Assembly: GCA_964638315.1 (NCBI GenBank)
Contig: CAZWYO010000018.1
Coordinates: 1 to 25,764, forward strand
Direction: 5' to 3'
Source of the DNA: an uncultured Candidatus Babeliaceae bacterium
GTDB taxonomy: Bacteria > Babelota > Babeliae > Babelales > Babelaceae
DNA: 25,764 bases
Of this stretch, positions 949 to 23,953 are shown in pieces. The position numbers and the translations under genes are program-made. The notes beneath the pieces are model-generated. The model saw only the letters and a program-made list of their open reading frames with translations. It searched no databases and was not told where the DNA came from. How positions within the stretch are numbered: the stretch's first letter is position 1; every line of letters begins with the position of its first letter.

Positions 949-1077
949 GTGCGCGATATCCTCCCTCACTAACCCCAGAATAAGCCGTCCGAATGCAAGA
1001 CCGACACGCGGACCAATAACGGTCCAACTTCTTATAGTATACCCCCAAATGGCCAAAGAAAAAAATAACTCCGCTCT

Positions 1078-1641: not shown

Positions 1642-1684
1642 CGTAATATCCCTAAAAAAAATTATCCACAAACTTTTACATAGA

Positions 1685-1847
1685 CCCGCACACCCTGAGC
1701 TTGTCGAAGGGTTTCCCGGGTGCGGACCATACAGAAAATTACTCAGATTTGCCGCACATTTAGACCCGGAGTTTATCCTGAGCGAAGTCGAAGGGACAGG
1801 CCCCATGCTTCGCCAAGGCTTCGCAGGGCTAGCGTCAGGGTGTGCGG
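1685..1847. repeat. Composite nested palindromic repeat element, copy 2: motif M at 1691-1711, second motif N GAGTTTATCCTGAGC at 1769-1783, terminal TCAGGGTGTGCGG
   Basis: Same CCGCACA...GGGTGCGG hairpin units as copy 1. The second unit is interrupted by the N-motif module also seen at 25544-25558. Confidence 0.75.
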
Positions 1848-1863
1848 ATTTTGAAATGCTAAC

Positions 1864-3207: not shown

Positions 3208-3306
3208 GGTATTTATTGTACCACAATGGGAGTTTTGTGGGCAGGACAATTGCGCAGGTACTTACAACATTTTAGATGCAAATTGCCCCGCCAACTATCA
3301 TTCCAT

Positions 3307-4443: not shown

Positions 4444-4571
4444 CGCATCACTCCCATAGCATGAGAAACAACAGACGGCGCACGCATCTGACAGAATTGA
4501 CACGCCGCTCCAATCACTAGTCACGTTAGTGCAGCCTCGATTTTTTGTAAACGCATATTTCTACCCAACTA

Positions 4572-4580
4572 TGCTATACT
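4572..4580 (+). promoter_or_regulatory. Extended -10 element TGcTATACT upstream of the ABC-F gene
   Basis: TGn + TATACT lies about 50 nt upstream of the ATG at 4632. The same TATACTAG core occurs upstream of the SPFH gene. Confidence 0.3.
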
Positions 4581-4631
4581 AGTCAAAAGATCCCCACCTA
4601 CCAACTCTTTCGAATAACCTGCTACAATACC

Positions 4632-7796: not shown

Positions 7797-7975
7797 TGTT
7801 GTTTAGCACGGTCTATTCGGTCAAATAACCAAAACGCAAACGGCCTGGAAATAACCTGACGCAAATTATTGTTACCACCAATTCCTATTTTGTATCATGG
7901 AGCTGGCGGCTTGTGTATCTGTCTATTTCAAACGTGATAGACATACAAAAAAAAACAAGTTCAAGAGGTGATGCT

Positions 7976-9100: not shown

Positions 9101-9203
9101 ACGGGCCACTCTATTGCGCCGAAATAGATAATCTTGTTAAGTTGGTATTGGACATCCACGAGTAATCTAATTTGATTTGTGTCGAAAGACACAAGGAGGT
9201 TGT

Positions 9204-10367
9204 ATGCAAAAGCTCACCATTTTTTGTTGCATGCTACTAATCGTTGCCGTTGGCACCACGAACACCATGAAAAAAAACGGGGTATGTAAAAAAAGACTTC
9301 TCTACCTCGCCATCCAAGAGGACAATCTGGCCAATGTAAAGGGAATACTTGAAACAAACAAAAAGCTTATCAATGAACCTCTCAAAGATGGATTTGCGGC
9401 CCTTCATCTGGCTGTTTATTTCAAACAGATCGAGATTATCAAACATCTTTTAGGCCTTCCCACCATCAATGCAAACGTCCATCGCATCCTATGTGGGTCT
9501 GCGCAGGGAGTTACGCCCCTTCACCTTGTAGCAAATAATGGCTCACTAGAGATCATCAATCTACTGAGCACACATCAAAAAATCAGAATCAATATCCGTG
9601 ATGAGTGGCGACGCACACCGCTCCATTTTGCATCAGCGCAGGGTGCAGTAGCAATAATAGCTTATCTCTGCTCATTACCTGGGATTGCTATCAATATCCG
9701 CGACATGGAAGGTCTCTCCCCGCTGGCCTATGCTGTCAAGAGCGGTTCACTCGAAGCCGTTAAGACGCTATGTGGATGTCTCAAGATAAATCTTCTTTAT
9801 AGTGACTGGGAAAAATCGATCGCTCTACACCTCGCAGCAGGAAATAACGGGACCGATATTATAAATTTTTTTCTCTCTAAAGGGGTGCCTGTCGACATTA
9901 GAAATGAACTCGGTTTCACACCACTGCATGTCGCCTCATTTTGCGGAAATAAAGATGCGATAAACCAACTCATAAATTGCGGTGCAGATGTTAATGCTCT
10001 GACAAAAAAGAAAGAGAAGCCCATAGACCTCTGTTTTATGCGTGGGCACTACGCGGCGGCAGCCGATCTTCTGAAAAACGGCGCATATATGACCGAAGCG
10101 CTATGGAAAAAAGTCTGCAAAAATGGAAACTTTTCACCTGTCGTTGATGCCCTGATCATCGACCCTTTTGTGAAAATAGATGGTCCCAAGAAAAAAACAG
10201 ACCTTTATAAAAGCATACATATTGCCATAAAAAATAAACAAAACACGCCGCTAGAACGGGTTTTTCGGAAATATGTCCAACAAATCTCTCAGGGCTATGG
10301 GCCAAATATCGTTCTAACTGAAGAAGACCAGAAGATTGAAAAGCAGTATTTTAAACCCCTACTGTGA
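9204..10367 (+). CDS. Ankyrin-repeat protein with N-terminal signal peptide (effector-like)
   Basis: AAGGAGG sits just before the ATG. Signal peptide MQKLTIFCCMLLIVAVGTTNT, and at least six ANK repeats (…TPLHLVANNGSLEIINLL…, …TPLHVASFCGNKDAINQLINCGADVNA…). Confidence 0.8.
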   Translation: MQKLTIFCCMLLIVAVGTTNTMKKNGVCKKRLLYLAIQEDNLANVKGILETNKKLINEPLKDGFAALHLAVYFKQIEIIKHLLGLPTINANVHRILCGSAQGVTPLHLVANNGSLEIINLLSTHQKIRINIRDEWRRTPLHFASAQGAVAIIAYLCSLPGIAINIRDMEGLSPLAYAVKSGSLEAVKTLCGCLKINLLYSDWEKSIALHLAAGNNGTDIINFFLSKGVPVDIRNELGFTPLHVASFCGNKDAINQLINCGADVNALTKKKEKPIDLCFMRGHYAAAADLLKNGAYMTEALWKKVCKNGNFSPVVDALIIDPFVKIDGPKKKTDLYKSIHIAIKNKQNTPLERVFRKYVQQISQGYGPNIVLTEEDQKIEKQYFKPLL

Positions 10368-10379
10368 AGCCCAAAACTG

Positions 10380-10388
10380 TGGTATACT
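10380..10388 (+). promoter_or_regulatory. Extended -10 element TGgTATACT upstream of the SPFH gene
   Basis: TGn + TATACT lies about 40 nt upstream of the ATG at 10428. Confidence 0.3.
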
Positions 10389-10427
10389 AGACTCTAATCT
10401 ACTTTTTCATATTTTTTTGAGGACTAT

Positions 10428-11336
10428 ATGTCCATTATCATTGGCATCATAATCACACTCGCCGTCATAGCAATTATGTTGTTTTTCAGCTCCTTTGTTA
10501 TTGTTGAGCAGCAAAAATTAGTTATTGTACAACGCTTTGGCAAGTTTAGCCGTGTCCTACAGCCCGGCCTAAACTTTAAAATACCGGTCGTAGAACTCGT
10601 TGCCGGAACGGTGAACCTCCGGATTCGGCAGCTCGACGTGCGCGTCGAAACCAAAACTGAAGACAACGTGTTTGTTTTTGTTATCGTTTCGGTCCAGTAT
10701 TTTGTTGATCCAAAGGGCGTATACGAGGCTTTTTATAAGCTACAAAACCCAGAACAGCAGATAACGTCATTTGTGTTTGATGTCGTACGTGCACGCGTGC
10801 CACGGCTCAAACTTGACGATCTCTTTGAGAAAAAAGATGAAATTGCCATTGCCGTCAAGGACGAAATCACGCAAGTGATGAATGATTTTGGGTATATCAT
10901 TCTAAAAGCACTTATCACCGATATCGAACCTGACTCTAAGGTCAAGGCCTCCATGAACGAGATTAACACTGCGCAGCGGCTCCGCATTGCGGCCGTTGAA
11001 AAGGGCGAGGCTGAGCGTATCCTTAAAGTGAAATCGGCGGAAGCAGAAGCGCAGAGTAAAGCGCTACAGGGCAAGGGCATAGCAGATCAACGGCGCGCCA
11101 TTGTTGAGGGCCTGCGCGAGTCGGTAAGCGAATTTCAAGAGAGCGTCCCGGGGACATCTGCCCACGACGTGATGAACCTCGTGCTCATGACCCAGTACTT
11201 TGACACGCTCAAAGAGATCGGTGCATCATCAACCACAAACACCATTCTGATCCCCCACTCGCCCGGCAACTTATCAGATATTTCTGACCAGATGCGCAAT
11301 GCGATGATTACGGCGCAACAAGTTGGTAAAAAGTAG
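10428..11336 (+). CDS. SPFH/band-7 family membrane protein (stomatin/prohibitin-like)
   Basis: N-terminal TM helix followed by an SPFH core (VIVQRFGKFSRVLQPGLNFKIP…) and a C-terminal Ala/Glu-rich coiled coil. Confidence 0.8.
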   Translation: MSIIIGIIITLAVIAIMLFFSSFVIVEQQKLVIVQRFGKFSRVLQPGLNFKIPVVELVAGTVNLRIRQLDVRVETKTEDNVFVFVIVSVQYFVDPKGVYEAFYKLQNPEQQITSFVFDVVRARVPRLKLDDLFEKKDEIAIAVKDEITQVMNDFGYIILKALITDIEPDSKVKASMNEINTAQRLRIAAVEKGEAERILKVKSAEAEAQSKALQGKGIADQRRAIVEGLRESVSEFQESVPGTSAHDVMNLVLMTQYFDTLKEIGASSTTNTILIPHSPGNLSDISDQMRNAMITAQQVGKK

Positions 11337-11443
11337 GCGACAAAACAAGAATTTTTTTCAATCTATTGCGCCTTGGGCCATCTCTCTGTTAAATTCAGAA
11401 TAGTTAAGTTCATGTATAGACTATTTTAAAAAATGGAGAGACC

Positions 11444-11656
11444 GTGAAACATTCGGCAGTATTAATCGTTGTCCTTGTGCTATCTGCTGTTGGGTCTTGT
11501 TGGATCCAGGCGGCCAAAGGCACTAGAGAAACAAAAAAGAAAATAATGGCCACAAGCCCAGAGTTTTTTCAGGATCCCCGCAAGATCCTCAGGGAAAAAT
11601 ATCGTCGCGAATTCGCAGAATATAACTATAACAACTCGAAAAAACAGACCCATTAA
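11444..11656 (+). CDS. Small hypothetical secreted protein or lipoprotein (70 aa)
   Basis: GTG start with GGAGAG upstream. Hydrophobic leader MKHSAVLIVVLVLSAVGSC, then a basic tail. Coding status is uncertain. Confidence 0.35.
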   Translation: MKHSAVLIVVLVLSAVGSCWIQAAKGTRETKKKIMATSPEFFQDPRKILREKYRREFAEYNYNNSKKQTH

Positions 11657-11696
11657 TATTTTTCACGACACGACACTATTGTGATCGTCAAATAAC

Positions 11697-11705
11697 CTGC
11701 TATAA
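11697..11705 (+). promoter_or_regulatory. Extended -10 element TGcTATAAT upstream of the HAD-like gene
   Basis: TGn + TATAAT lies about 30 nt before the ATG at 11737. Confidence 0.3.
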
Positions 11706-11736
11706 TACTTTTTTTATTGGTCTTAGAGACCAGAGA

Positions 11737-12474
11737 ATGCCACAGGGAAGAGAGGAACCTATGCAACCGTCCAATCTCATTTATACAATCGAAGACCTTG
11801 GCGATCTGGTGCCATTTTTGAATCGCAATAATAGTGCTCGCACACTCATGATATTTGACATAGATGATACACTCATACGGATGTGCGATCATCAAGCATC
11901 AGGAACTTGGTATAGAGAGGCTCACGACGAACTTACGGCTCAGGGGAAGTCTGCAGAAGAAGCAAAGTTCATTCTTTTTCAGACACACATCTCCGCCCTA
12001 TACCGCACACCGGTCGAATTGGTAAACAAAAAAATATCAGAACATATCAGCATGTTAAGCGAAAACAAGGTTACCACCATCTGCCTTACCGCACGCGAAG
12101 GACGCTGCCTTCTTTATGCAACGCTCAGGCATCTGAACGATGCGCATATCAACTTCATGCAGAGCGAGGAATGTCTAAAAAAGACACTCTTTTTCCCCGA
12201 AATACCTGATTGCGACATCATCTATTCATCTGGAATACTCTTCACCGGCGGCGCAAACAAAGGAGAGGTTCTTGAGCTCTTTTTTAAAAAAACTGGCTAC
12301 CTACCAACACATATAATCTTTGTCGACGACTCTTTAGTTAATGTCGAGGCGGTCAGCATAAGCGCCAAGAAAATGGGAATAGCGTTCGATGGTTTTCATT
12401 TTACTGGCGTTAAAATACCCCTTACAGAACCAACTTTTGTGGTACATAAGAAACCAATCCAACCAGAGCGGTAA
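11737..12474 (+). CDS. HAD-superfamily phosphatase-like protein (paralog A of 13156-13920); alternative start at 11761
   Basis: HAD motifs: I FDIDDTLIR, II LTAR, III K in GGANKGE, IV HIIFVDDSL. Clear paralogy with the gene at 13156. The ATG at 11761 has the better SD (AGAGGA). Confidence 0.7.
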   Translation: MPQGREEPMQPSNLIYTIEDLGDLVPFLNRNNSARTLMIFDIDDTLIRMCDHQASGTWYREAHDELTAQGKSAEEAKFILFQTHISALYRTPVELVNKKISEHISMLSENKVTTICLTAREGRCLLYATLRHLNDAHINFMQSEECLKKTLFFPEIPDCDIIYSSGILFTGGANKGEVLELFFKKTGYLPTHIIFVDDSLVNVEAVSISAKKMGIAFDGFHFTGVKIPLTEPTFVVHKKPIQPER

Positions 12475-12571
12475 GCCGCTTGACGCCCAGATGTGGTCTG
12501 ATTTTTATTGATTTTCGCCAAACATGCCTGGTACGATAAATATAGGTCGTACAAAATGGAAGGTTATGGTT

Positions 12572-13081
12572 ATGAAAAATATACGTATGTTCATGGTGAT
12601 TATGTTTCTGACATGGGCAAGTGGCGCTTTCTCGCGGCTCACGGAGTTCCTCCCCTCAGACAACGAATACAGTCAAAACCAAGGCAAACAAACAACTAAG
12701 CTCGATATCAAGACCATAGAACTCGAAAACAAACTCCGCGACAAGTACAATATGTCACGTGACCAAGAAAAAAAACTACGCGAAGAGCTGGCCAATCTAG
12801 AACAGAAAAAAGCTGCCGAAGAGAGAATGACAAAGCATCTCAACGAACTTGGTGCACTCGATGCAGCACTCAAGTGCAATGTCGAGATACTTAAACAGAT
12901 TAACGATGAGATACGACGACTAAAAAATCTTAAGTCCCATAAAAAAACCGCTAGCATCTTAAAAGATATCAAGAAACAGACGCGGGACCTAAAAAAGCAA
13001 CAAGGCAAACTTGATGATGTGGTAAAAGCTCTTATTAAAAAAAGAGATGGTGTTCAGCTGAAAATCAAGAAAATAGCCTAA
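12572..13081 (+). CDS. Secreted coiled-coil protein, K/E/L-rich
   Basis: GGAAGG lies 8 nt before the ATG. Signal peptide MKNIRMFMVIMFLTWASGAFS. The rest reads as heptad-like K/E/L-rich sequence. Confidence 0.6.
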   Translation: MKNIRMFMVIMFLTWASGAFSRLTEFLPSDNEYSQNQGKQTTKLDIKTIELENKLRDKYNMSRDQEKKLREELANLEQKKAAEERMTKHLNELGALDAALKCNVEILKQINDEIRRLKNLKSHKKTASILKDIKKQTRDLKKQQGKLDDVVKALIKKRDGVQLKIKKIA

Positions 13082-13155
13082 CCATTTGCACCCTGCTGTC
13101 AATCGCGTTATCATAAACTTATAAGTACCACCAAATATCCTTATAAAAGGTTTTT

Positions 13156-13920
13156 ATGTATATCATGAGAAGCGCACTATGCGCGATTGTTTTTTTATGC
13201 GCCCCGCTGCACACATATATTCGCGAAACTGACTCACTAGTCGATATAGTCGATATAGGTGATCAAAATACCCTCGTTGTTTTCGATCTTGACGACACCC
13301 TCATCCGCGGTTTTGGCGCAGCAACTGACGAATGGTTCAGAGCACACGTAAAAGAACTTGTTGACGCAGGTAAGACCGCCAGTGAAGCGATTGATATGGT
13401 CCTGCCCGCCTACGCCGCAGCACAGTGCACCACCAGAGTGCAGTTTGTTGAAAACAGCGCGCCAGATATTCTTACTGAGCTGCGTACACGAAAAATTCGC
13501 ACCATCGCGCTCACCTCACGCGGCAGAAAAGAGCTCTTTGCCGCAACATTCCGACAATTTTCTGATCTTGGCATCACGCTTAAACAGGACGACCCCGCAT
13601 GGCAACAGATGTTCACGCTCGAGCCGCTACGCGGGGAGACACGCTATCAGGATGGGATCATTTTCTGTGATGGGAATAACAAAGGGGCCGCCCTTGAAGT
13701 TTTTTTTGAACGACTCGGTTACCGCCCCACCCATATTATTTTTGTCGATGACTCTCTCGGCAACCTTCAGGCCGTTGAGAAGCTCGCAGAAAAGCTCCAT
13801 ATTCGCTTTAATGGATTCCACTATTTGCGTGTGCAACACGGGCTTTTGGATCAGCCGATTCTCACGCCGTCTTATGCGTCATCAACGCCTTCCAGCCAAC
13901 AGGAAACCTCGGTTCAATAA
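13156..13920 (+). CDS. HAD-superfamily phosphatase-like protein with signal peptide (paralog B of 11737-12474)
   Basis: Signal-like N-terminus MRSALCAIVFLCAPLHT, then FDLDDTLIR … GIIFCDGNNKGAALEVFFERLGYRPTHIIFVDDSL, collinear with paralog A. There is a 59-bp convergent overlap with thyX. Confidence 0.7.
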   Translation: MYIMRSALCAIVFLCAPLHTYIRETDSLVDIVDIGDQNTLVVFDLDDTLIRGFGAATDEWFRAHVKELVDAGKTASEAIDMVLPAYAAAQCTTRVQFVENSAPDILTELRTRKIRTIALTSRGRKELFAATFRQFSDLGITLKQDDPAWQQMFTLEPLRGETRYQDGIIFCDGNNKGAALEVFFERLGYRPTHIIFVDDSLGNLQAVEKLAEKLHIRFNGFHYLRVQHGLLDQPILTPSYASSTPSSQQETSVQ

Positions 13921-14554
13921 TCTGTGAAACGAGTGAAGCGTAGACCCCTATCTCCCGCTGGGCATTTGGGGCAAGCCGGAGCCCCGCAAGACGTGCATAG
14001 CCAGCAAGACTCGCTGTCTCAATGAACTCGGTATACATAGATTGCGGCAGAATAAGACGGGCCTGTTCAGGGCAGACACCCTGTTTGAGAAGACTATTAT
14101 AATAGGCCACAGATTGTGCGACAAATTCGCGCATTTCGGCAACAAGTTCGTCACTTTTTTCAACGAGATTTGCGCTCGATCCCTGTTTGACATTTGCGTC
14201 ACACTGGCGCAGGGACGCCGGCACAAAACATTCCGGTTCGCTCGTCACATAGCGGCGCGAGACCTCGTTGCGGCAAAAGCCGACCGTGTGCCGGTACCAC
14301 TCACGCGCAATAAAGATCGGCATGCGAATACGGAACCGAAGCTGCGGATGAAAGAATGGCGCGATATGTCTATGTTTTGCCAAATAATCGATAAGTTGAG
14401 CATCCCGCTCGGCAAGCACGTCATGCCCATCGACATGCTCAAAAGCTGACTCTTTATTAAACGAAACCCGGGCGGCATTTACGATGGTAAGATCATTACC
14501 AAAGCATTCGATAAGTTCGACAAAACCAATATTATCTGTGAGAAACAACTTCAT
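13862..14554 (-). CDS. thyX: Flavin-dependent thymidylate synthase ThyX
   Basis: GFVELIECFGNDLTIVNAARVSF and PIFIAREWYRHTVGFCRNEVSRRY align with the ThyX N-terminal and RHR-X7-8-S motif regions. GAGGG lies 5 nt before the ATG. Confidence 0.85.
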   Translation of the reverse strand: MKLFLTDNIGFVELIECFGNDLTIVNAARVSFNKESAFEHVDGHDVLAERDAQLIDYLAKHRHIAPFFHPQLRFRIRMPIFIAREWYRHTVGFCRNEVSRRYVTSEPECFVPASLRQCDANVKQGSSANLVEKSDELVAEMREFVAQSVAYYNSLLKQGVCPEQARLILPQSMYTEFIETASLAGYARLAGLRLAPNAQREIGVYASLVSQIIEPRFPVGWKALMTHKTA

Positions 14555-14575
14555 GTTCTACCCTCTCTTTTTTTA

Positions 14576-15721
14576 TCACACTTTTTTGCCAAGTATCAAT
14601 CGGTAGACCGCCTCGGCAACTCGCGGTGTGTCGTTAAGATCGCCACTGTAGGGCACATCAGGCTTATACGCCTCGTTATTCCCGCGCAAACGGCCCCGAT
14701 ATACTTTTATAGGAAATGTAAACATCCCCTGGCCGCTCGGCAGCTTCTCGCTGCGCACCTCCATGTAGAAGGTGTCTGCACCCGTCTGCTCCCCAAAGAG
14801 AATAACCGGATGTTTTAGATGCTTGAGCTCATCTATAAAATCGAGACATGCGCTGACACAGGCATGGTCAATTATGACAAAAATAGGGGCAGTAACGGGA
14901 TTGGGCACCTGCTTGATGTGAGGTTTATACTCACCCTTCGGCACCCGAACCAGCTTATCACCATGCTCAGATGCGGTCTTCATAGTCTGGTAGAACTCGT
15001 CATAACCGCGTGCAAGCTCACTCTCTTTACCAAAATCTTTTGCACAACCCTGCGCGATTTTTTTGATATGCAAAAGGTTGCCAGCGCTCACGCGATAATC
15101 AAGAGCGATCTTTTCCCAGAGCTCGTAGCGCTGCTGTTGGGCGTAGGAAGGAGAAAAGAGCTCTGAAATTATCTGACCGCTCCATGCAGAATTACCGCCC
15201 GTATTGCCATGCAGATCAAAAATAATCGCTCTGTAGTGGCGCAGATGCACCAACATCTTAAACATCTCAGCAAGCCGACCCTTCTGCTCCTCTCCGCCAA
15301 GCTCAAAGGTTGGTATCCGGATCCATGCTACGTGAGGGGCAATCTCATCAAAAGCTACCAGCTTTTTCGGGTCCTGTTTTTCTGTTTTAGTGGCGGTTTT
15401 CGCTTTTTTCTTTAGTGGACCGGTCCGAAGATGGCTGTCATGGAAACTGCTGACAAACGACTTAACAACGGCCTCATAACCATCGTGATCGATAATAGTA
15501 GTGAGGGCATTAAGGGCATTCTGGTAAGCAGCTTCAAGATTTTGGGAAAAATGCGGGTCTTCGGCATTGACGGGGCCCGGATGATTTTCAAGGATCTGAG
15601 CACGCATAAAATCGAGGTCCTGCCGCGCCATGCGCTGCCAGTAACTGCCGTCTTCATCGCACCCACAGAAGAGGGTGACCAATAAAACTAGAGATGTGGA
15701 CAAGAGATAGTTTTTGTTCAT
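14576..15721 (-). CDS. S41-family (C-terminal processing/tail-specific) peptidase-like lipoprotein
   Basis: Signal peptide MNKNYLLSTSLVLLVTLFCGC. IFDLHGNTGGN resembles the S41 DLR.N.GG motif and IDHACVSACLDF resembles the S41 G.SASA(S)E active-site region. The family call is tentative. Confidence 0.5.
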   Translation of the reverse strand: MNKNYLLSTSLVLLVTLFCGCDEDGSYWQRMARQDLDFMRAQILENHPGPVNAEDPHFSQNLEAAYQNALNALTTIIDHDGYEAVVKSFVSSFHDSHLRTGPLKKKAKTATKTEKQDPKKLVAFDEIAPHVAWIRIPTFELGGEEQKGRLAEMFKMLVHLRHYRAIIFDLHGNTGGNSAWSGQIISELFSPSYAQQQRYELWEKIALDYRVSAGNLLHIKKIAQGCAKDFGKESELARGYDEFYQTMKTASEHGDKLVRVPKGEYKPHIKQVPNPVTAPIFVIIDHACVSACLDFIDELKHLKHPVILFGEQTGADTFYMEVRSEKLPSGQGMFTFPIKVYRGRLRGNNEAYKPDVPYSGDLNDTPRVAEAVYRLILGKKV

Positions 15722-15791
15722 CTTCGCACCGTATCGGTTTCTATAAAAGAGTTAACGCTTAGTAGCAGTTTACCGGAAAACGGTCAGTTTT

Positions 15792-16007
15792 TCACGAGAG
15801 TTTTTTGGCCTGTTTTTTGGCGCTAAACCAGCAGGTGCAAATTGCCAAGACAACGCCTGTGGTAGCAACCACACAGCTAACACCGACCTGAACGCCTCCC
15901 ACTATCGTTTCGATGGTCTTGCAGGCTCCATCGCACACCGCATGGCTCACGCACGAGCTGCATCCAAGTGAAAGCACTAACCCAATCAACAGAAGATTTT
16001 TTTTCAT
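15792..16007 (-). CDS. Small Cys-rich lipoprotein/membrane peptide (71 aa, 8 Cys)
   Basis: Lipobox LSLGC. The mature part is CSSCVSHAVCDGAC, a hydrophobic helix and a KKQAKKLS tail. The ORF-track extension to 16073 was trimmed to the ATG at 16007. Confidence 0.4.
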   Translation of the reverse strand: MKKNLLLIGLVLSLGCSSCVSHAVCDGACKTIETIVGGVQVGVSCVVATTGVVLAICTCWFSAKKQAKKLS

Positions 16008-16076
16008 ATTTTTAGATCCGCTATTATTAACCATTACTAGTAAAATAATAGCGGATAAACGACGTTTTTGCAAGAT

Positions 16077-16484
16077 TCAACGCCCCCGATGTTTCGCCTT
16101 GCGCTTTTGCTGTGCCAACTCAAATTTTCTCATTTTCTCTTCTTCACAAACTTCTTTTGACTGCCGCTTGCGCTCACCCTTTTGGGCTTCAAGATCTCGC
16201 TTGAATGCCTCCTGCGCTTTGGTACCAACTCCAACTGCAACTTCTTTGCGGACCAGACGCTGCAGACGCTTGGGATTTATTCGTTTCTCGCTCTCGGGAT
16301 CAGCTTCAACTGGACGTGTAAATTGCAAATTGCTGTAGCTACTCTGTACAAATGCAAGCACCTGGCAGTCGGCCGGTTCTACACCGAAAGTCACACGTGC
16401 AACCTCAAGTTGGTCATCATGAAGACGCTCAAAAACACCGACCCAGAACTGGTCGTCAAAAAAAATAGTAAGACGGCTCTTCAT
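16077..16484 (-). CDS. Conserved hypothetical protein, DUF2992-like (FDDQFWVGVFER motif) with basic C-terminal tail
   Basis: N-terminus MKSRLTIFFDDQFWVGVFERLHDDQLEVARVTFGVEP resembles the DUF2992/YjdF-like family from memory. AGGAGGG lies 8 nt before the ATG. Confidence 0.45.
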   Translation of the reverse strand: MKSRLTIFFDDQFWVGVFERLHDDQLEVARVTFGVEPADCQVLAFVQSSYSNLQFTRPVEADPESEKRINPKRLQRLVRKEVAVGVGTKAQEAFKRDLEAQKGERKRQSKEVCEEEKMRKFELAQQKRKAKHRGR

Positions 16485-16506
16485 TGTTTTGGCCCTCCTG
16501 TCCCAC

Positions 16507-17232
16507 TCATGCCACTTGATACGAGACTCGGACAATCCCTCCCTTACACTTGACCTTGGTCACCTCCACGCGCCCAACGGCAGACGAGACAGACACATGT
16601 GTCCCACCACAGGGGCACGAGGCGAACTTCCCAATATGAACAACACAGACCGGCTTGCCAGCAGGAAGATAGTCTGGAACATGCAGACAGACCTTTTCAA
16701 GCTCGTCGCGCGCCATAAGAGCGCTCGTAACAGGAATATTCTCTTTAACCAGTGCATCCACATTTATCTGTAGCTCTTGCTGAAAAGTCGCGCACTCTTC
16801 AGGCGTCATAGTGGCCACATATTCGACATAGGGATGGTCGGGAAAATGGTACCCCTTGCCATTAGTAAGCGACCGTCCCGTGTTTTCCATCGCAACATCG
16901 AGCAGGTGGCCTGCAGTGTGCAAACGGCTCAATAGGTTCCGACGTGCGGTATCAATGCGTGCGGTAACCGCAGCTCCCTGGCCAAATGAGCCCGAAACAA
17001 ATTCACCAAAATGGTAGACGATCCCATCCGCAAACCGTGCATCATCAACCCTAAAAACACCCATGTCCCCAATGATTTCACCGTGATCTGCGGGCTGTCC
17101 GCCACCTTGAGGATAGAAGACCGTTCGATCGAGTATGACCGCTCTTTTGCCGTCCCGCTCGACGACATCAACGACCTGTGCGGTCGTCGCGGCTATGTCC
17201 CAATTGTTAATGTAGAGTAATTCTGTTTCCAT
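16507..17232 (-). CDS. AlaX-like tRNA editing protein (Ala-/Thr-tRNA synthetase second additional domain hydrolase)
   Basis: Zinc-binding editing motifs HTAGHLL (HxxxH) and CPCGGTH (CxxxH). Start trimmed to METELLY. Confidence 0.7.
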   Translation of the reverse strand: METELLYINNWDIAATTAQVVDVVERDGKRAVILDRTVFYPQGGGQPADHGEIIGDMGVFRVDDARFADGIVYHFGEFVSGSFGQGAAVTARIDTARRNLLSRLHTAGHLLDVAMENTGRSLTNGKGYHFPDHPYVEYVATMTPEECATFQQELQINVDALVKENIPVTSALMARDELEKVCLHVPDYLPAGKPVCVVHIGKFASCPCGGTHVSVSSAVGRVEVTKVKCKGGIVRVSYQVA

Positions 17233-17473
17233 AGTAGTAATCCATCCTCTGCGTGAATTCAAAAGTACCATCACCTGACCCGGGATCAAATATGCCAAAT
17301 TTATACACTAAAGAAAAGGGGCATAAATCAAAACAAAACAGCTGTATTTATTGGGGCGATCCGCGAGAGGTATACCTTTATAACAGCTGAAATGAAACAA
17401 TAACGCAAATAATGGCCCGACACCGTTGGTTACCCCAAAGATACCGGGCCACATAAAAAATTAAACCCGCACG

Positions 17474-18367
17474 TTACTCTTTTACTGCGATAAACTTGAG
17501 GCTAGAGATCGGCAGCTCTTTAGTGCCGAACCACTTCTCATTTACGGAGAAATCCTCGTCAACAATCGTCACCTTAAACCCAAGCTCCGTCAAACGATCA
17601 ATGTACTCCTGCTTACTTATCGCACCACTCACGCACGCGCAGAGCAACTTGGTATCCCTTTTCTGTTCTGGTGTGAGTGATCCAGTCAACACCACATCCG
17701 AGATCGCCATGGCCCCATTCTGTTTGAGAATGCGATGGATCTCCTTGAACACCTTCATCTTATCGGGCGCCAGATTGATAACGCAGTTGCTGATCACCAC
17801 ATCGACGGTACCGGTCGCAACAGGCATGTTTTCAATGTCCCCAAGCCTAAACTCAACATTGTCATACCCATACTTGACGGCATTAGCGCGTGCTTTTGCG
17901 ATCATCTTCTTGGTCATGTCGATGCCAATAACTTGTCCCGATTGACCCACCTTGCGCGCAGCTAAAAAGCAATCAAACCCTGCACCAGATCCCAGATCGA
18001 CAACCGTCGAGCCAGACTTAATTGGAGCAAAACTTACTGGATTGCCGCACCCAAGACCCAAATTAGCATCAGCAAGGTCATCGATCTCCTCGCGCGAATA
18101 ACCAATCTCTTCAGACAGCGCGGCGCCACCGCCACAGCATCCGCCCCCCAGACAGCACATGCCACCCTCGTCCGCTACTTTGCCGTACTCTTGCTGTATG
18201 ACCGCTTTGAGATCAGCACTGCTAGCGGGAGCTTTCTGCTCTGTCTGCTTCACCGCTTTTTTACCACAACAGCCTCCAGGACAACAGCAGCCAGACATGG
18301 TGGCTAGAGGAAAACTACACATGACAAAACAGACCGATACACGGCTCAGTTTGAAAGATATCTTCAT
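17474..18367 (-). CDS. ArsM-family SAM-dependent methyltransferase (arsenite methyltransferase-like) with N-terminal lipoprotein-type signal peptide and Cys/Gly-rich extension
   Basis: GLGCGNP, SAM motif VVDLGSGAGFD, VEFRLGDIE, VVISNCVINL and CACVSGA are collinear with bacterial ArsM. AAGGAG lies 6 nt before the ATG at 18367, giving leader MKISFKLSRVSVCFVMCSFPLATMSGC followed by CCPGGCC … MCCLGGGCCGGG. Confidence 0.75.
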   Translation of the reverse strand: MKISFKLSRVSVCFVMCSFPLATMSGCCCPGGCCGKKAVKQTEQKAPASSADLKAVIQQEYGKVADEGGMCCLGGGCCGGGAALSEEIGYSREEIDDLADANLGLGCGNPVSFAPIKSGSTVVDLGSGAGFDCFLAARKVGQSGQVIGIDMTKKMIAKARANAVKYGYDNVEFRLGDIENMPVATGTVDVVISNCVINLAPDKMKVFKEIHRILKQNGAMAISDVVLTGSLTPEQKRDTKLLCACVSGAISKQEYIDRLTELGFKVTIVDEDFSVNEKWFGTKELPISSLKFIAVKE

Positions 18368-18465
18368 ATAAAACTCCTTGAAAAAATGGATTAGCCCGCT
18401 TACGAGAACTATTCTCTTCAACCTCCCACACCCTCCACAATACTACAATCAGGACGCCCCCCCAC

Positions 18466-18963
18466 CTAAATTACCCCAGCAGTTATCTGCTTTCTCAAAA
18501 CAACGCCACACCTTTCAACCACTTTATGCGATTGAGCGCGGCCCATGTCGGTCTTTAGGAACGCCGTGTACTTATACAAAAATTTTTCCTCGGAGATACG
18601 CTTGCTATTTGCGAGCACGCTCGCCACTGGACCGTTCTCCCATACCTTCGCAGCGTCCGGAACATCTCCCAAAATGGTTGGCCTCAGATAGGCAACCACC
18701 GATGGTGTAATAGAGTTGGTGCGTGCAGCATATTCGAGAATACCCATCATGTTGCAAAAATGTTGGGGGACTTTCTCCTGCCCAAACATCTTCGCCACGG
18801 TTCCGGGGAACCAGACGAGAAAATGGAATACCGCCTCGTACGTCTCCTCAGAAAAGAAGGCCCCCGGCGCCTCATTCACAAGTACTTTCTCAACACCTGC
18901 AAGTTGCCCAACTGCAGAAGACATACTGAGCAAAAAGAGTAGAACAAAAGTTTTCCGCGCCAT
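18466..18963 (-). CDS. Secreted hypothetical protein (166 aa)
   Basis: GGGAGG lies 6 nt before the ATG. Signal peptide MARKTFVLLFLLSMSSAVGQLAG. No recognisable domain. Confidence 0.55.
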   Translation of the reverse strand: MARKTFVLLFLLSMSSAVGQLAGVEKVLVNEAPGAFFSEETYEAVFHFLVWFPGTVAKMFGQEKVPQHFCNMMGILEYAARTNSITPSVVAYLRPTILGDVPDAAKVWENGPVASVLANSKRISEEKFLYKYTAFLKTDMGRAQSHKVVERCGVVLRKQITAGVI

Positions 18964-19135
18964 CTTAGGCCTCCCACACCTGATACAAAACGCACACCTA
19001 AAAACACAAAAAAACTCACGTACTCGAGCATACCACAGTGCCAGTTCAACAGCCAAACCTTGCCTCGCACTAGAAAAAAATGATCTCACGAGCTATAATA
19101 ATAGCGTATATAAGTCACTTTTTTGGTATTAAACC

Positions 19136-19720
19136 ATGAAAAAAATATGGGTCGCATCAACAAACCAATCAAAGATCGATGGAACTCGCATGGCGTTTGA
19201 GTTGCTCTATCCAGGCGCTGAGTTTACCGCGATAGGTCAAAAGATCCCCTCAACAGACACTAAAGTACTTTGGCACGGAGAGCTCGTCGAGCAGCCACGA
19301 ACTGACGAAGATACTAAGCATGGGGCATTCGCGCGCCTTCAATATCTCATGGATATCAGCGTAACGCATAGCCAAGAACCGGATTTTTATGTCGCAATCG
19401 AGGCGGGTGTTGCACCGTACGGAGATGGGCTTATTGCTTCTTCCTGGGCAGCGGTATCAAATGGGGTTAATACAGAATCATACGGAAGATCCCCTAGCTT
19501 TATCGTCCCACCCCGTGTTGTCGAAGAGATGCAAAAGGGGCATACCATGCTCGAGGCATGCAAAATCGTCTACCCTCCGCATATGAATCCCAATGCAAAA
19601 GACGGACTTATCGCAATTCTTTCTGGTGGCGTAATCACCCGAACAGATCTCTCGGCCCAAGCAGTTATGATGGCGCTGTTGGAGGTTAAGAATCGTGCGT
19701 TGTATGGGAAATACGCTTAA
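19136..19720 (+). CDS. YjjX-like inosine/xanthosine triphosphatase (DUF84/NTPase_I-T family)
   Basis: MKKIWVASTNQSKIDGTRMAF, FYVAIEAGV and GGVITRTDLSAQAVMMALL align with E. coli YjjX MHQVVCATTNPAKI… / …WVAIEAG… / …LTR…QA…AL. A TATAAT lies at about 19093. Confidence 0.65.
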   Translation: MKKIWVASTNQSKIDGTRMAFELLYPGAEFTAIGQKIPSTDTKVLWHGELVEQPRTDEDTKHGAFARLQYLMDISVTHSQEPDFYVAIEAGVAPYGDGLIASSWAAVSNGVNTESYGRSPSFIVPPRVVEEMQKGHTMLEACKIVYPPHMNPNAKDGLIAILSGGVITRTDLSAQAVMMALLEVKNRALYGKYA

Positions 19721-19829
19721 ATCATGCAAAAATGCTTTGACAAGCCTATGCTGCACCTCTATAATAAAAACTGAATTAGCGCCATAGATCGTTGATACCA
19801 TATAACCTAAACCATCAGGAGTTTTATTT

Positions 19830-20303
19830 ATGAAATTGTCTATCAAGAGACTTTTATTAATCAGCATTTTCAGCATTCAGTTATTACCAATGGCCGCTGA
19901 GGCAATGCAAGAAAAAGAAAACCCACCGAAGAAAGAAGAACCAAAACCATGGTTGCATCAACGCTTATATAATGAGTATAGAGAACAACCTACTTGGGTC
20001 CAAGTAGCAGGGGCTGGCCCCGCCTGTTTAGCTCTCTACTCCGTTCCTGTGGGATTTTTTAAAAATCTTTTGTGCTTAGTCTTTGGAATCAAGCCAGGAA
20101 CATCCACCACCTTCGATACGAGTAAATCGATCGCTGAACCCTTTTACAAAAATCTTCCCCCAGTTATACAGGTCCCAATTGCCTTATGTATCTTGCCGCT
20201 CATTGGTAGTGCTGTTGAAACTGGCTACACTCTTAAATCAGTTGGGAAGGCTATCGGAACTGTGGCTAAAAATGTCGCGACCGCAGTGCAGGGCAAAAAC
20301 TAA
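19830..20303 (+). CDS. Secreted/membrane hypothetical protein (157 aa); cargo of a small insertion
   Basis: AGGAG lies 9 nt before the ATG, with a TATAAT at about 19760. Signal peptide MKLSIKRLLLISIFSIQLLPMAAEA, two further hydrophobic segments and an Ala/Gly/Val-rich C-terminus. Confidence 0.55.
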   Translation: MKLSIKRLLLISIFSIQLLPMAAEAMQEKENPPKKEEPKPWLHQRLYNEYREQPTWVQVAGAGPACLALYSVPVGFFKNLLCLVFGIKPGTSTTFDTSKSIAEPFYKNLPPVIQVPIALCILPLIGSAVETGYTLKSVGKAIGTVAKNVATAVQGKN

Positions 20304-20328
20304 TAAACAACGACCATTACATAAAGAG

Positions 20329-20420
20329 CCTGGTGAACGATTACGCGGACAGATCTCTCGGCACAGGCGATTGTCATGGCGCTGTTAAAAGCAAATAATG
20401 GGGATTTGTACGTAAAATAG
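20329..20420 (+). pseudogene. Displaced duplicate of the last ~26 codons plus stop of the YjjX-like gene
   Basis: It encodes ITRTDLSAQAIVMALLKANNGDLYVK* versus the gene's ITRTDLSAQAVMMALLEVKNRALYGKYA*. Nucleotide identity is about 70-75% with many synonymous changes, and an in-frame TGA lies just upstream. Confidence 0.7.
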
Positions 20421-20433
20421 GGCTAAAAAACAG

Positions 20434-21051
20434 ATGGTTACTATGCGAGAGCAAAACACAAAAGTAGTTATCTTCGATGTTGATGGCGTTCTGATTAACA
20501 GCACAGATGCATTCGGCAACTACCTGTGGAAAAAAGACATCGAAAAAGATCTCGGGATAACCCCCGATCAAGTAGAACAGATTTTTTCTAACGAGTGGCC
20601 CGCGGTAATCAGAGGGCATATTGATACAAGACAGCACTTTGAGAAAAGGCTCACAACATTGCAGCTAGAGCTTCCAGTTGATACGTTTATGGACTACTGG
20701 CTCGAGCATGATACAAATATTAACAGAGAAATAATACCGGAAATCGAAGCTATCAAGGGCATAAAACTCTATATCGGCACCAATCAAGATCCATATCGGG
20801 CGGCATTCCTGCAAAAGAAGTTTGCCAAATATTTTGATGGAATGTTTGCCTCGCATCAGATTGGGTTTATCAAGCCGGAGCCAGAATATTTTGAATACAT
20901 CGAATCACACCTGAACATGCAAGCCGCTAATATTGCCTTTATTGATGATTCTCTGTCCAACATTCAGGCGGCTATACAGCGTGGGTGGATATGCCATCAT
21001 TACCAAAATATCGAAGGGTATAGAGATTTTATCCGGTCTTGTGCCCACTAA
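20434..21051 (+). CDS. HAD-superfamily hydrolase, subfamily IA-like
   Basis: Motif I VVIFDVDGVLI, motif III K in FIKPEP, motif IV IAFIDDSLSN. Confidence 0.75.
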   Translation: MVTMREQNTKVVIFDVDGVLINSTDAFGNYLWKKDIEKDLGITPDQVEQIFSNEWPAVIRGHIDTRQHFEKRLTTLQLELPVDTFMDYWLEHDTNINREIIPEIEAIKGIKLYIGTNQDPYRAAFLQKKFAKYFDGMFASHQIGFIKPEPEYFEYIESHLNMQAANIAFIDDSLSNIQAAIQRGWICHHYQNIEGYRDFIRSCAH

Positions 21052-21112
21052 AACATCGCCCGCTTCAACCCAAAATACTCAGTCTTGCGCTCACCACTTT
21101 TCAGATCTTCTC
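21048..21112 (-). pseudogene. Displaced duplicate of the last ~20 codons plus stop of the NUDIX gene at 23491-23949
   Basis: Positions 21048-21110 match 23491-23553 with 3 mismatches. The minus-strand reading encodes EDLKSGERKTEYFGLKRAMF* versus the gene's DDLKNGERKTEYFGLKRARF*. The copy's antisense stop overlaps the HAD gene's TAA. Confidence 0.75.
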
Positions 21113-21163
21113 CAAAATAGCCCCAGCCCAGTAATATTTACGCGGCTGCGCGGCCTATCCTAC

Positions 21164-21192
21164 TTGACAATTATAATTATTATGGTTATTAT
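21164..21192 (+). promoter_or_regulatory. Sigma70-like promoter candidate, TTGACA-17 bp-TATTAT, in an AT-rich low-complexity tract upstream of the ankyrin-HExxH gene
   Basis: TTGACA at 21164-21169 with TATTAT at 21187-21192. The surrounding ATTATAATTATTA tract is of low complexity, so the hexamers may be fortuitous. Confidence 0.25.
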
Positions 21193-21255
21193 AATTATTA
21201 TAATTGCATTACATTAAGATATAAGATTCAATAAAATTGGGATCCGTGGAGAAAT

Positions 21256-23448
21256 ATGAAAAATTTTACCAAAATAACAGCATTAGCAATCCTATTTTGC
21301 ATTGCAATGCAAACGCATCCTGTGATAGATACTACTCTGAAGGTCATTGGTGCTGGAACAAGTGCGATAGGCTTTATAGCTGGAATAACGATAATGGCAA
21401 AAGAGTACATCAATGACAATCAGAAGCAGTATACAGAAACTATATGGCACGCGCTGATGGGGACGGTTGTAGCTGAAGATTCGAGCCAGTCAAGCTATTT
21501 TTTAAAGATCAAAGACCTGCTCTGCCCAAAACCCCGGGGGAGATACGTGCGAAACAAAAAAAAGAGTAAGGAAATTATTAAAGATGCCATCAATAATGGG
21601 TTGGATATCAATCAGGAGTGTAATTTTGGGTACTGGTCTGAGCTTCCTCTTCATGAGGCTGTTCGACACGAAAAAAATATTTCAATCATCAAACTTCTTC
21701 TCGATAATGGCGCCAAAGTGAACCTAAAAAACGCCCGAGAGGAATGTCTATTGCATAAGGCCGCCGACATAAAGGTTGTCGATTTTCTTCTATCCAAAGG
21801 GTGTGATCCAAACCTTCAGAATGCCCGTGGCCAGACAGCGCTGCACTATTTCCTCACTAGACAGAGCGGTCTAGTGATAAGCAAACTCCTTCTCGCCCAC
21901 GGTGCCAGATGCGACATCAAGGACCGGCACGGAGATACGCCGCTCCATCAGATCCTCAAAAAAAAGAATTCACCAGACCACCTCGAGTTTATTGCATTAC
22001 TTCTCAACCAAAAAGATTGTGATTCAAATAGCCAAAATATGGACGGACAGACTGCCTTACACCTTGCCATAGAAAACCACCAATATCAGCTTGTTAAGCT
22101 ACTAATCGATCATGGTGCCAATCCGCTCATAAAAAACAAAAACGGAAAGACTGCATTCGATCTTAGCTGTTCGACGCTCATACAGGGCGAACTACGGAGA
22201 GGACTAAACAGCAAGTATGAGGTCGACGATACAGTAACCCATCAGGATATTACAGACATCAAACCATTTGCATCGGAAAAAGCAGCAACCGACGCATATC
22301 GGCAGCTTCAGGAAGAGATAAAAAAACATGGACATACGTCGTTGATAGTCGACAAAATGCTTCTTTTCTGTCAACGACTAATGCGTTATAAGGTTATGAT
22401 AGATATTGCAAAACAAAAGACCTACACCCAAACACTCGGCCTCAGTATAAACAAAGCCGGCTACATTACCATGAAACTGCTTCCTCAAACCATTGATCGC
22501 GCACAAACGGGAGTAAACGGTAGTAAATTGACCGAGATAAACGAACAAAATACACTCCTGTTCATGTTAAAAATCGACAAAAACAGAACCACTACACGTA
22601 ACCGACTTTATGCGCTACAACAAAAACGCGTTAACCACGCACCCAACAAGTCGGCGAAGTCTTTCTTCCCCGAAATCTTCATAGATGATGAGACAGTTGG
22701 AACTAACGCATCTGGCATATATCGCACACAAGAATGCGTAATCTGGGTAGCTGAATGGGCGCTGTATACGGATGACTGGGTTCTTACCGTCATGCATGAA
22801 TTTCTCCACCACCTACAATATATTACCGGCCGAGAAATGGGTGGTTCTGATGGTGCACCAGTAAAAAACGATGATGAACTCGCAGAATCTTTCGGCGAGA
22901 TCATCAATGAGTATTTTGCTGAAAAAGGAAAAATAAAACTCGCCCCAGATAAAGAGAAACTCCTTGAAAAATTGCGCGCAGAAATAAAACCGAATAAATA
23001 TACACAAAAACAGATCGTTGATAAGTTGCTATGCGGCTTACCATACTTTTCCCAACTCATGAATTACGCGGTACTGCTACACGAACAAAAAAAGAAAAAT
23101 CCCAATACAGCACTTCAAGAACACGAAAAGGCCATACTCACGTGTTATGAGAAGCTTTGGCCTGAGATAAATAGGCGTATAATATGCGCTACAAAAAAGA
23201 TGGAAAAAGTCGATATCTGCGCAGAGAATGCAACTCGCTGCGAAGAACTTGCATTCAGGCAACACACTAAGAAAAAAGATTTTGAAAAATATACCAACAA
23301 AATAAAAGGCAAGCTGCGCACCTACTACGCTAAGAAAAACAAGCTTACATACGAGCTGCAGAAAAAGATCGATAAAGCAAGGAACTATCGTTACGGTAGC
23401 AAAGGATTTTTAAAACTCAAAAAAGAGCTCGGCCTCATACCAAGCTGA
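21256..23448 (+). CDS. Large ankyrin-repeat protein (730 aa) with N-terminal hydrophobic leader/TM and C-terminal HExxH zinc-metallopeptidase-like domain
   Basis: N-terminus MKNFTKITALAILFCIAMQT plus a second hydrophobic segment. At least six ANK repeats (LPLHEAVRHEKNISIIKLLLDNGAKVN … GQTALHLAIENHQYQLVKLLIDHGANP). The C-terminal half carries VMHEFLHHLQY (HExxH) followed by acidic DDELAESFGE. Confidence 0.8.
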   Translation: MKNFTKITALAILFCIAMQTHPVIDTTLKVIGAGTSAIGFIAGITIMAKEYINDNQKQYTETIWHALMGTVVAEDSSQSSYFLKIKDLLCPKPRGRYVRNKKKSKEIIKDAINNGLDINQECNFGYWSELPLHEAVRHEKNISIIKLLLDNGAKVNLKNAREECLLHKAADIKVVDFLLSKGCDPNLQNARGQTALHYFLTRQSGLVISKLLLAHGARCDIKDRHGDTPLHQILKKKNSPDHLEFIALLLNQKDCDSNSQNMDGQTALHLAIENHQYQLVKLLIDHGANPLIKNKNGKTAFDLSCSTLIQGELRRGLNSKYEVDDTVTHQDITDIKPFASEKAATDAYRQLQEEIKKHGHTSLIVDKMLLFCQRLMRYKVMIDIAKQKTYTQTLGLSINKAGYITMKLLPQTIDRAQTGVNGSKLTEINEQNTLLFMLKIDKNRTTTRNRLYALQQKRVNHAPNKSAKSFFPEIFIDDETVGTNASGIYRTQECVIWVAEWALYTDDWVLTVMHEFLHHLQYITGREMGGSDGAPVKNDDELAESFGEIINEYFAEKGKIKLAPDKEKLLEKLRAEIKPNKYTQKQIVDKLLCGLPYFSQLMNYAVLLHEQKKKNPNTALQEHEKAILTCYEKLWPEINRRIICATKKMEKVDICAENATRCEELAFRQHTKKKDFEKYTNKIKGKLRTYYAKKNKLTYELQKKIDKARNYRYGSKGFLKLKKELGLIPS

Positions 23449-23490: not shown

Positions 23491-23949
23491 CTAAAACCTC
23501 GCCCGTTTCAACCCAAAATACTCAGTCTTGCGCTCACCATTTTTCAGGTCATCCCAGTCAAGATCTTTGATGGGCGCTGGGAAAACGATTTCGCTTGCCA
23601 GCTCTTCTTTGCCGTACCAGCCGACGTTCACGATGCCCTCAATCTTGGCCTCGTCAGTCTCAATAAGTTCACCACCGACCAGGTCACACAAAAACCAGAA
23701 TTTGAACATCCGGTATTTTTCGGTTAAGAGATCCTCCACAAACAAAAGATTGCCCACATGGACCTCAAGCCCCGTCTCTTCCATCACCTCACGCTTGACG
23801 GTATCGACCAGGTCTTCGCCATGGTTGGCGCCCCCGCCGGGGCCCAGCAAAAAAGACCCACCGCGTCCATCGGGACACCGGTTCAGCAGGATCTTGCCGT
23901 CATGTATGATAACCGCCGAAGCGGCGATACGCACTATTTTTTCCATCAT
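23491..23949 (-). CDS. NUDIX hydrolase (Nudix box GGGANHGEDLVDTVKREVMEETGL)
   Basis: Nudix box present. Start trimmed to MMEKIVRIA, and the gene is tightly coupled to the upstream gene (which ends at 23954). Confidence 0.75.
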   Translation of the reverse strand: MMEKIVRIAASAVIIHDGKILLNRCPDGRGGSFLLGPGGGANHGEDLVDTVKREVMEETGLEVHVGNLLFVEDLLTEKYRMFKFWFLCDLVGGELIETDEAKIEGIVNVGWYGKEELASEIVFPAPIKDLDWDDLKNGERKTEYFGLKRARF

Positions 23950-23953
23950 GCCC

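Follow-up and report, generated by a model that had tools for sequence, protein, structure and literature searches.

An uncultured Candidatus Babeliaceae bacterium of the phylum Dependentiae (TM6) encodes, on a contig of 25,764 nucleotides (CAZWYO010000018.1, referred to in its entirety as the window), a 730-residue protein in which ankyrin repeats are fused to a C-terminal domain with an invariant HExxHxxQ motif and a zincin-like predicted fold. Open reading frame (ORF) calling and translation revealed a complete coding sequence (CDS; 21256..23448, + strand) that begins with an ATG codon and specifies, in this order, a hydrophobic leader, the ankyrin repeats, a linker, and the zincin-like domain. 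A protein identical to this product (P0002 in our set of relatives) was found at NCBI and on two Logan contigs. We propose that the catalytic domain represents a small zincin family that had not been curated before and is confined to Dependentiae, and that fusion to ankyrin repeats, a rare and derived condition, has added a targeting module. A host-targeting effector is plausible, because ankyrin repeats are joined to a predicted zinc protease of a family found almost only in Dependentiae; the organism, the leader, and the literature on the phylum point in the same direction. Taking sequence, structural model, and analogy together, we put at about even the chances that the protein is a gluzincin-like effector protease targeted by its ankyrin repeats and exported through the general secretory (Sec) pathway and the type II secretion system (T2SS).

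Motifs and predicted fold of the C-terminal domain

The 730-residue protein contains a single HExxH sequence (residues 514 to 518), which had been picked out by a prior sequence-only reading of this DNA. It is part of HEFLHHLQ (residues 514 to 521; 22795..22818, + strand), the local version of the motif HExxHxxQ that emerged from the family alignments. Based on amino acid frequencies, the odds of a chance HExxH in the 730-residue protein were estimated at ~2%. The motif is not a chance occurrence, since it is invariant in all 26 members of the family and set in a confidently modeled helix; the motif scan retrieved the complete HExxHxxQ in 26 of the 26 sequences. The HExxH of the sequence-only reading was thus borne out, with both of its histidines conserved throughout. 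In alignments of 25 sequences, residues H514, E515, H518, Q521, Y390, F471, P472, and P596 were invariant, and A555 and P564 were invariant in alignment A3.

A downstream Glu of the gluzincin type had also been postulated and had been placed in the stretch DDELAESFGE (residues 538 to 547). A conserved downstream Glu does exist: it is E552 in NEYFAEK, which at least 90% of the members share in the 25-sequence alignments. This residue opens EYFAE (residues 552 to 556; 22909..22923, + strand), the local version of the family motif E-x-x-A-[E/D] defined by the alignment and located in helix 540-561 of the model. In the motif scan, E-x-x-A-[E/D/C] was present in ~24 of the 26 members at 28 to 38 residues past the second His, the distance from H518 being 34 residues in the window protein. 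Its proposed placement fell: DDELAESFGE was discarded as a candidate ligand helix, since the closest homolog, P0001, does not preserve it and has Lys in place of both E541 and E544. This stretch and the length of the domain apart, what the sequence-only reading had observed was confirmed, and its interpretation was supported in part. Combining conservation with the model, we propose H514 and H518 as zinc ligands, E515 as the general base, and E552 as the putative third zinc ligand. E556 would correspond to the Asp of the ExxxD motif of thermolysin, as judged from clan MA. Membership in the metzincins, SprT, or Wss1 was rejected because neither a conserved third His nor a Met-turn signature is present; the third ligand of SprT and Wss1 is His, not Glu.

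The domain spans ~400 residues (332 to 730; 22249..23445, + strand), instead of the ~330 residues of the sequence-only reading, and comprises N-terminal helices, a β-sheet, an active-site helix, a helix carrying the conserved Glu, and a C-terminal helical bundle. An AlphaFold model of residues 321 to 730 computed with the family alignment had a predicted local distance difference test score (pLDDT) of 89.5 and a predicted template modeling score (pTM) of 0.90. Three short strands are followed in this model by helix 508-527, which bears HExxHxxQ, and by helix 540-561, which bears E552 and E556. As modeled, this order is that of a zincin core, namely, sheet, active-site helix, and ligand helix, and H514, E515, and H518, conserved in the homologs, lie within an α-helix as in zincins. 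About 250 of the 400 residues of the domain form helical elaborations specific to the family.

The sequence-only reading had not recognized the protein as belonging to a named family, and the database searches agreed with it: Pfam afforded only sub-threshold matches of the domain, to DUF6782 and DUF3920, and NCBIfam, PHROGs, and PADLOC afforded nothing. The nearest curated family is PF20573 (DUF6782), annotated as a putative metallopeptidase and itself uncharacterized. It was matched weakly, over ~70 to 90 residues spanning the strands and the HExxH helix, by 12 of 25 members, and is the only curated model that recurred across the family. All of these matches were below the gathering cutoff of 27 bits, the best being P0019 (25.0 bits, E value of 1.3e-5); the family consensus scored 16.5 bits over ~87 residues, and the window protein itself had no match to this model. 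PF13058 (DUF3920) scored 18.7 to 19.9 bits over residues 483 to 532, under its cutoff of 27.3, in 1 of the 25 members, and no match of the window protein to Pfam Peptidase_M78 was detected. Neither the C-terminal sequence by itself nor the family profile retrieved anything significant in sequence searches of the PDB; the best zincin was the M3 oligopeptidase A, aligned over its HEFGHalQ helix only (E value of 0.35). Foldseek detected no significant match for the domain in the PDB or BFVD. In the literature search, we found no mention of DUF6782 or of the zincin-like family. Neither the profile searches nor the alignments placed the region in a non-catalytic family or revealed variation at the HExxH histidines, the two outcomes that the sequence-only reading had named as refuting it.

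We propose that the domain works like the gluzincins of clan MA(E), which include the M1, M3, M13, M32, M34 (anthrax lethal factor), and M48 families and the minigluzincins. It differs from these enzymes by the lack of significant sequence similarity or of a Foldseek match, by a His-to-Glu spacing of 28 to 38 residues, by the invariant Gln located three residues past the second His, and by large family-specific helical regions flanking the core on both sides. Alternatively, the domain would be no peptidase but a different metal-dependent hydrolase, one removing a posttranslational modification or acting on a nonprotein substrate, for example, or else a binding module that keeps the fold and has lost its catalytic function. 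The absence of a significant match to characterized peptidases in the PDB searches, the extent of the helical elaborations, and the invariance of Q521 beside the motif, a trait foreign to canonical gluzincins, are in keeping with such a function. However, the strict invariance of the H/E/H triad and the near invariance of the downstream Glu point to retained catalysis, and almost all of the structurally characterized proteins with the same core among the matches are peptidases. We therefore consider a non-peptidase function improbable and retain a gluzincin-type peptidase as the predicted activity.

Ankyrin repeats and distribution of the family

Residues ~101 to 320 (21556..22215, + strand) form an ankyrin-repeat solenoid composed of five canonical repeats and of N- and C-terminal caps, as indicated by matches to the Pfam models Ank_2, Ank, Ank_5, Ank_4, and Ank_3 (E values of 1e-14 to 3e-28) and by helix pairs in the model. 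The Ank_2 match reached 98.6 bits (E value of 3e-28; cutoff of 27.3) and PF00023 reached 91.6 bits in five separate stretches. With scores above the gathering cutoff, the region belongs to the Pfam clan Ank, which is defined by tandem 33-residue helix-turn-helix repeats matching PF00023 or PF12796. The full-length AlphaFold model, with a pLDDT of 78.7, showed approximately five canonical ankyrin helix pairs plus caps across residues 101 to 320; its residues 1 to 100 were of low confidence. Since five canonical repeats are completed by degenerate caps, the count of at least six repeats in the sequence-only reading was roughly right. The solenoid is connected to the zincin-like domain by a flexible linker (residues 321 to 331; 22216..22248, + strand) with a pLDDT below 50 in the full-length model.

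All NCBIfam and PADLOC matches of the full-length protein stemmed from the ankyrin repeats. Among them, the NCBIfam models of Dot/Icm ankyrin effectors (T4SS_AnkH, AnkY, AnkX, AnkG, and others) scored at most 64.7 bits, to be compared with equivalog cutoffs of 500 to 1400, and were matched through the ankyrin repeats only. An origin in interbacterial competition was also considered, since polymorphic toxin systems include both HExxH toxin domains and ankyrin immunity proteins (PMC3482391); the protein would then be a metallopeptidase toxin with ankyrin repeats or carry an ankyrin-type immunity domain. We judge this highly improbable: the protein contains no RHS, filamentous, or other toxin-delivery repeats, no small immunity gene lies next to it and its neighborhood in the window is free of polyimmunity loci, the PADLOC match is limited to the ankyrin part, and an obligate intracellular parasite has little room for contact-dependent competition.

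A word-indexed search of 5.8 billion proteins with the C-terminal region retrieved a single homolog, P0001, which consists of 701 residues, is 36% identical, and displays the same architecture of ankyrin repeats followed by the C-terminal domain. When 1.84 billion cluster representatives were searched exhaustively with HMMER, 25 proteins were identified, namely, the window protein (P0002), P0001, and 23 proteins of 297 to 511 residues devoid of ankyrin repeats. Repeating the word-indexed search with alignment A2, which was dominated by ankyrin words from full-length P0001, added only P0026. Scans of genome and metagenome contigs with the two-sequence alignment detected no relatives. Ankyrin repeats are thus present in only two proteins of the family, most members being standalone, leader-bearing, and often encoded in tandem; that the protease-like family is mainly standalone had no counterpart in the sequence-only reading. 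The junction DDTxTHxDxxDxKPFAS is kept between the window protein and P0001, and the conservation of the ankyrin/zincin junction in both fused proteins indicates a single fusion event. The neighborhood of the P0001 gene is not syntenic with the window.

Two members of the family bear names, both assigned by NCBI to proteins of one Dependentiae metagenome-assembled genome, and one of the two, P0003, was located in GCA_023484465.1. The genes occur singly (locus L085) or as tandem paralogs (loci L004 and L086, the latter beside a ribosomal protein/SecY operon). The paralogs are arranged head to tail and encode standalone proteins, at 499..1974, 1995..3092, and 3121..4464 in L004 and at 1931..3385 and 3463..4758 in L086. 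Their leaders are nearly identical (MFKN…LTITLFTLLW[SA]CTSGAM) and their bodies divergent, which suggests rapid diversification. In addition, P0004, P0008, P0013, and P0026 are encoded on one NCBI contig of 76.8 kb.

Leader, location, and proposed function

The sequence-only reading had noted an N-terminal hydrophobic leader, and hydrophobicity analysis and sequence comparison agreed. Residues 1 to 18 (21256..21309, + strand) resemble a signal peptide: a short, positively charged N terminus (MKNFTK) is followed by ITALAILFCIA and a Met, so that the segment ends in [AG]-M, and residues 7 to 18 are strongly hydrophobic (Kyte-Doolittle 12-mer mean of 2.75). Hydrophobic leaders, commonly with the same ending, are found in nearly all members of the family and in five other ORFs of the window. 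A second, moderately hydrophobic segment rich in Gly and Ala spans residues 28 to 48 (LKVIGAGTSAIGFIAGITIMA; 21337..21399, + strand) and contains a GxxxG motif. Its Kyte-Doolittle 19-mer mean of ~1.4 is under the usual transmembrane cutoff of 1.6, and its pLDDT is low in the full-length model. Similar segments are present in P0003 and P0007 and absent from P0001 and most family members. This segment may anchor the protein in the membrane or may be carried across it. A signal-peptide-like leader is common to the family, and the topology of the window protein is left ambiguous by residues 28 to 48.

The ends of the leaders form a pattern of their own. An Ala or Gly and a Met precede polar residues in CIAM|Q, TCAM|D, AEAM|Q, AWGM|E, SGAM, SDAM, SEAM, and SNAM, and this ending was observed in ~18 of the 26 family members (P0001 to P0026), often with a Cys located 3 to 6 residues before it (LLW[SA]C…). 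Within the window, it was observed at 21256..21312, in several unrelated ORFs, at 7913..9100, 9177..10367, 19830..20303, and 23954..25012 (- strand), and possibly in the ORF at 3307..4524 (- strand). The ending resembles an AxA cleavage site in which the Met at position +1 is conserved; alternatively, it could serve as a signal for sorting that is specific to the phylum, or as an internal start from which a leaderless isoform arises. P0004 and P0025 start exactly at this Met.

Dependentiae are obligate intracellular parasites of protists (PMC6561590, PMC4776705). In Chromulinavorax, signal peptides were reported in 44% of the CDSs and in 78% of the 98 ankyrin proteins, which are viewed as host manipulation factors (PMC6561590), and the core genomes of TM6 bacteria encode a T2SS with two copies of gspD (PMC4776705). 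The succession of a signal peptide, ankyrin repeats, and a C-terminal enzymatic domain is a layout of endosymbiont effectors (PMC3482391). On this background, the Sec-type leader would carry the window protein out of the bacterial cytoplasm, and onward release would proceed through the T2SS or the vesicles of the phylum. The ankyrin solenoid (residues ~101 to 320) would bind a specific protein, probably of the host, and the flexible linker of ~10 residues would tether to it the predicted gluzincin-type zinc metallopeptidase domain (residues 332 to 730). In this domain, zinc would be held by H514, H518, and E552, and E515 would activate the catalytic water, enabling cleavage of the bound protein or of a neighboring one.

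Several points weigh against this scheme. The organism is uncultured, and the C-terminal domain has no above-threshold match to any curated peptidase family of Pfam, NCBIfam, PHROGs, or PADLOC. The second hydrophobic segment follows the leader and, if it acted as a stop-transfer anchor, would hold the ankyrin and protease parts back at the cytoplasmic face of the bacterial inner membrane, in conflict with a secreted effector. Because of this segment, where the protein finally resides is uncertain. Many of the standalone members resemble lipoproteins, having a Cys within LLW[SA]C or LVAC, so that an envelope rather than a host location is possible.

The last point leads to an envelope protease that would be attached by its leader and a lipid or transmembrane anchor, with the zincin-like domain in the periplasm or at the surface, and that would process envelope or secreted proteins or degrade host peptides for nutrition, the ankyrin repeats recruiting a bacterial partner or substrate instead of a signaling protein of the host. 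Leaders are present in nearly all members, in many cases combined with a Cys resembling that of a lipobox (LVAC in P0001 and LLW[SA]C in several others), residues 28 to 48 offer a possible anchor in the window protein, and the genes have ordinary chromosomal settings, as exemplified by locus L086. The structural neighbors include the envelope proteases BepA, BlaR1, and M48, and secretion of numerous peptidases that break down host polymers has been reported for Chromulinavorax (PMC6561590). Nonetheless, we hold this alternative to be doubtful, since confinement to a narrow set of Dependentiae (25 proteins in 1.84e9) is unlike a housekeeping envelope function, divergent expansion by tandem paralogs is typical of host interaction genes, and the ankyrin repeats of intracellular bacteria are mostly tied to eukaryotic targets (PMC6561590, PMC4776705).

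The two hydrophobic segments of the first 48 residues can also be read as a helical hairpin, or as a cleaved leader followed by a stop-transfer anchor, in a regulatory protease of the ImmA/IrrE, CapP, or RseP type that would be tethered to the membrane and face the cytoplasm. According to standard topology rules, a membrane span following a signal peptide puts the downstream chain back in the cytoplasm. We give this topology a low probability, because residues 28 to 48 are only moderately hydrophobic (mean of ~1.4), P0001 and most members have the leader only, and the gene has no ImmA/IrrE- or CapP-type repressor or operon nearby, with PADLOC blank for the domain. Unlike ImmA/IrrE (M78), CapP, SprT/Spartan, Wss1, and the protease domain of ArdC, the window protein has no helix-turn-helix or GAF partner domain and no repressor context.

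The exported effector protease was then compared with known effectors. The domain has no sequence relationship to NleC, NleD, GtgA/GogA/PipA, or anthrax lethal factor, and NleC, NleD, and GtgA are not among the structural matches listed for it. Zinc-protease effectors of type III secretion systems (T3SS) and anthrax lethal factor are devoid of ankyrin repeats and are delivered by the T3SS or the protective-antigen pore. Legionella AnkX and other Dot/Icm ankyrin effectors, as well as the Ank-OTU and Ank-toxin proteins of endosymbionts, combine an ankyrin targeting module with a catalytic domain, as the window protein does (PMC3482391). In contrast to the Dot/Icm effectors, its enzyme part is a zincin of a new family, and its export would depend on the Sec pathway and the T2SS rather than on a type IV secretion system. 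None of the metallopeptidase toxin families of PMC3482391 was reported with ankyrin repeats. Thus, the new elements are a Dependentiae-restricted zincin family and its rare fusion to ankyrin repeats in two proteins. No principle is overturned: effectors that join ankyrin repeats to an enzyme are an established idea, as are minimal zincin effectors.

As parasites of protists, the Dependentiae occur widely and have almost entirely escaped cultivation; their genomes are rich in ankyrin proteins. The presence of a confidently modeled catalytic domain on one of these proteins leads to a concrete and testable hypothesis, the targeted proteolysis of a host protein. It is the first hypothesis of this kind, at once concrete and catalytic, to be offered for a Dependentiae ankyrin protein, and is useful rather than startling to the specialist. 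The zincin superfamily gains an uncurated family, whose hidden Markov model, with invariant HExxHxxQ and nearly invariant E-x-x-A-[E/D], provides a handle for finding related effectors in metagenomes. Extending the proposal to the entire family, we see somewhat less than even chances that it is a new Dependentiae-specific group of zincins exported as effectors by the Sec pathway and the T2SS and diversifying by tandem duplication, an ankyrin module having been captured in two lineages and redirecting the protease to a specific protein of the protist host. If so, Dependentiae would have their first defined family of catalytic effectors.

Gene and genomic context

The origin of the window is supported by its ABC-F ATPase, for which all named close relatives belong to Candidatus Dependentiae, Babeliales, or candidate division TM6 (up to 76% identity); the MgsA-like ATPase is ~56% identical to proteins from many phyla. 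Together with these two genes, those encoding NUDIX and HAD hydrolases, ThyX, an S41 peptidase, AlaX, and methyltransferases form an ordinary chromosomal neighborhood. A search with Rfam revealed nothing in the window.

The 730-residue ORF is preceded by a gap of 205 bp that holds a σ70-like promoter sequence, TTGACA-17-TATTAT (21164..21192, + strand), located ~64 nucleotides 5′ of the start codon; this is a consensus match only (11 of 12 positions), and eight promoter-type matches were observed over the whole region for 5.9 expected. A Shine-Dalgarno-like GGAG (21248..21251, + strand) was read 4 nucleotides before the ATG. A terminator-like hairpin followed by a T-run (23426..23446, - strand) overlaps the final codons of the ORF and lies shortly beyond the 3′ end of the convergent NUDIX gene (23491..24075, - strand); it may be a shared or bidirectional terminator. 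The G+C content of the gene is 42.0%. It is 42 to 45% in 8001..13000 and 19001..23000, which contain the ankyrin and leader-bearing genes, and mostly 47 to 53% in 1001..7000 and 13001..19000, which contain housekeeping genes.

Two additional ankyrin-repeat proteins, of 395 residues (7913..9100, + strand) and 396 residues (9177..10367, + strand), are encoded in tandem and have a hydrophobic leader and no recognizable catalytic domain, making three ankyrin proteins in the 25.8-kb contig. Of three paralogs of the HAD superfamily (11737..12474, 13156..13920, and 20434..21051, + strand), two are clearly DUF2608 proteins and one is a HAD_2 protein that matches DUF2608 weakly; the third in position (20434..21051) is immediately upstream of the 730-residue gene. 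ORFs of 157 to 405 residues without a Pfam match are located at 19830..20303 (+ strand), 23954..25012 (- strand), 3307..4524 (- strand), 18466..19089 (- strand), and 12524..13081 (+ strand). Signal-like leaders are present in at least three of them, and these ORFs are candidates for additional lineage-specific exported proteins.

The C-terminal tail of the 730-residue protein (residues 713 to 730, YGSKGFLKLKKELGLIPS; 23392..23445, + strand) is conserved in the alignment and modeled with a pLDDT of 93 to 95. Its family consensus, GSxxFFxIKxKLGLLPK, was observed at or near the stop codon in approximately half of the family. This tail could be a sorting signal, an autoinhibitory segment occupying the cleft, or a structural element, and the …KLGLLPK terminus, like the [AG]-M at the end of the leaders, might be a signal for sorting or autoinhibition that is specific to the phylum.

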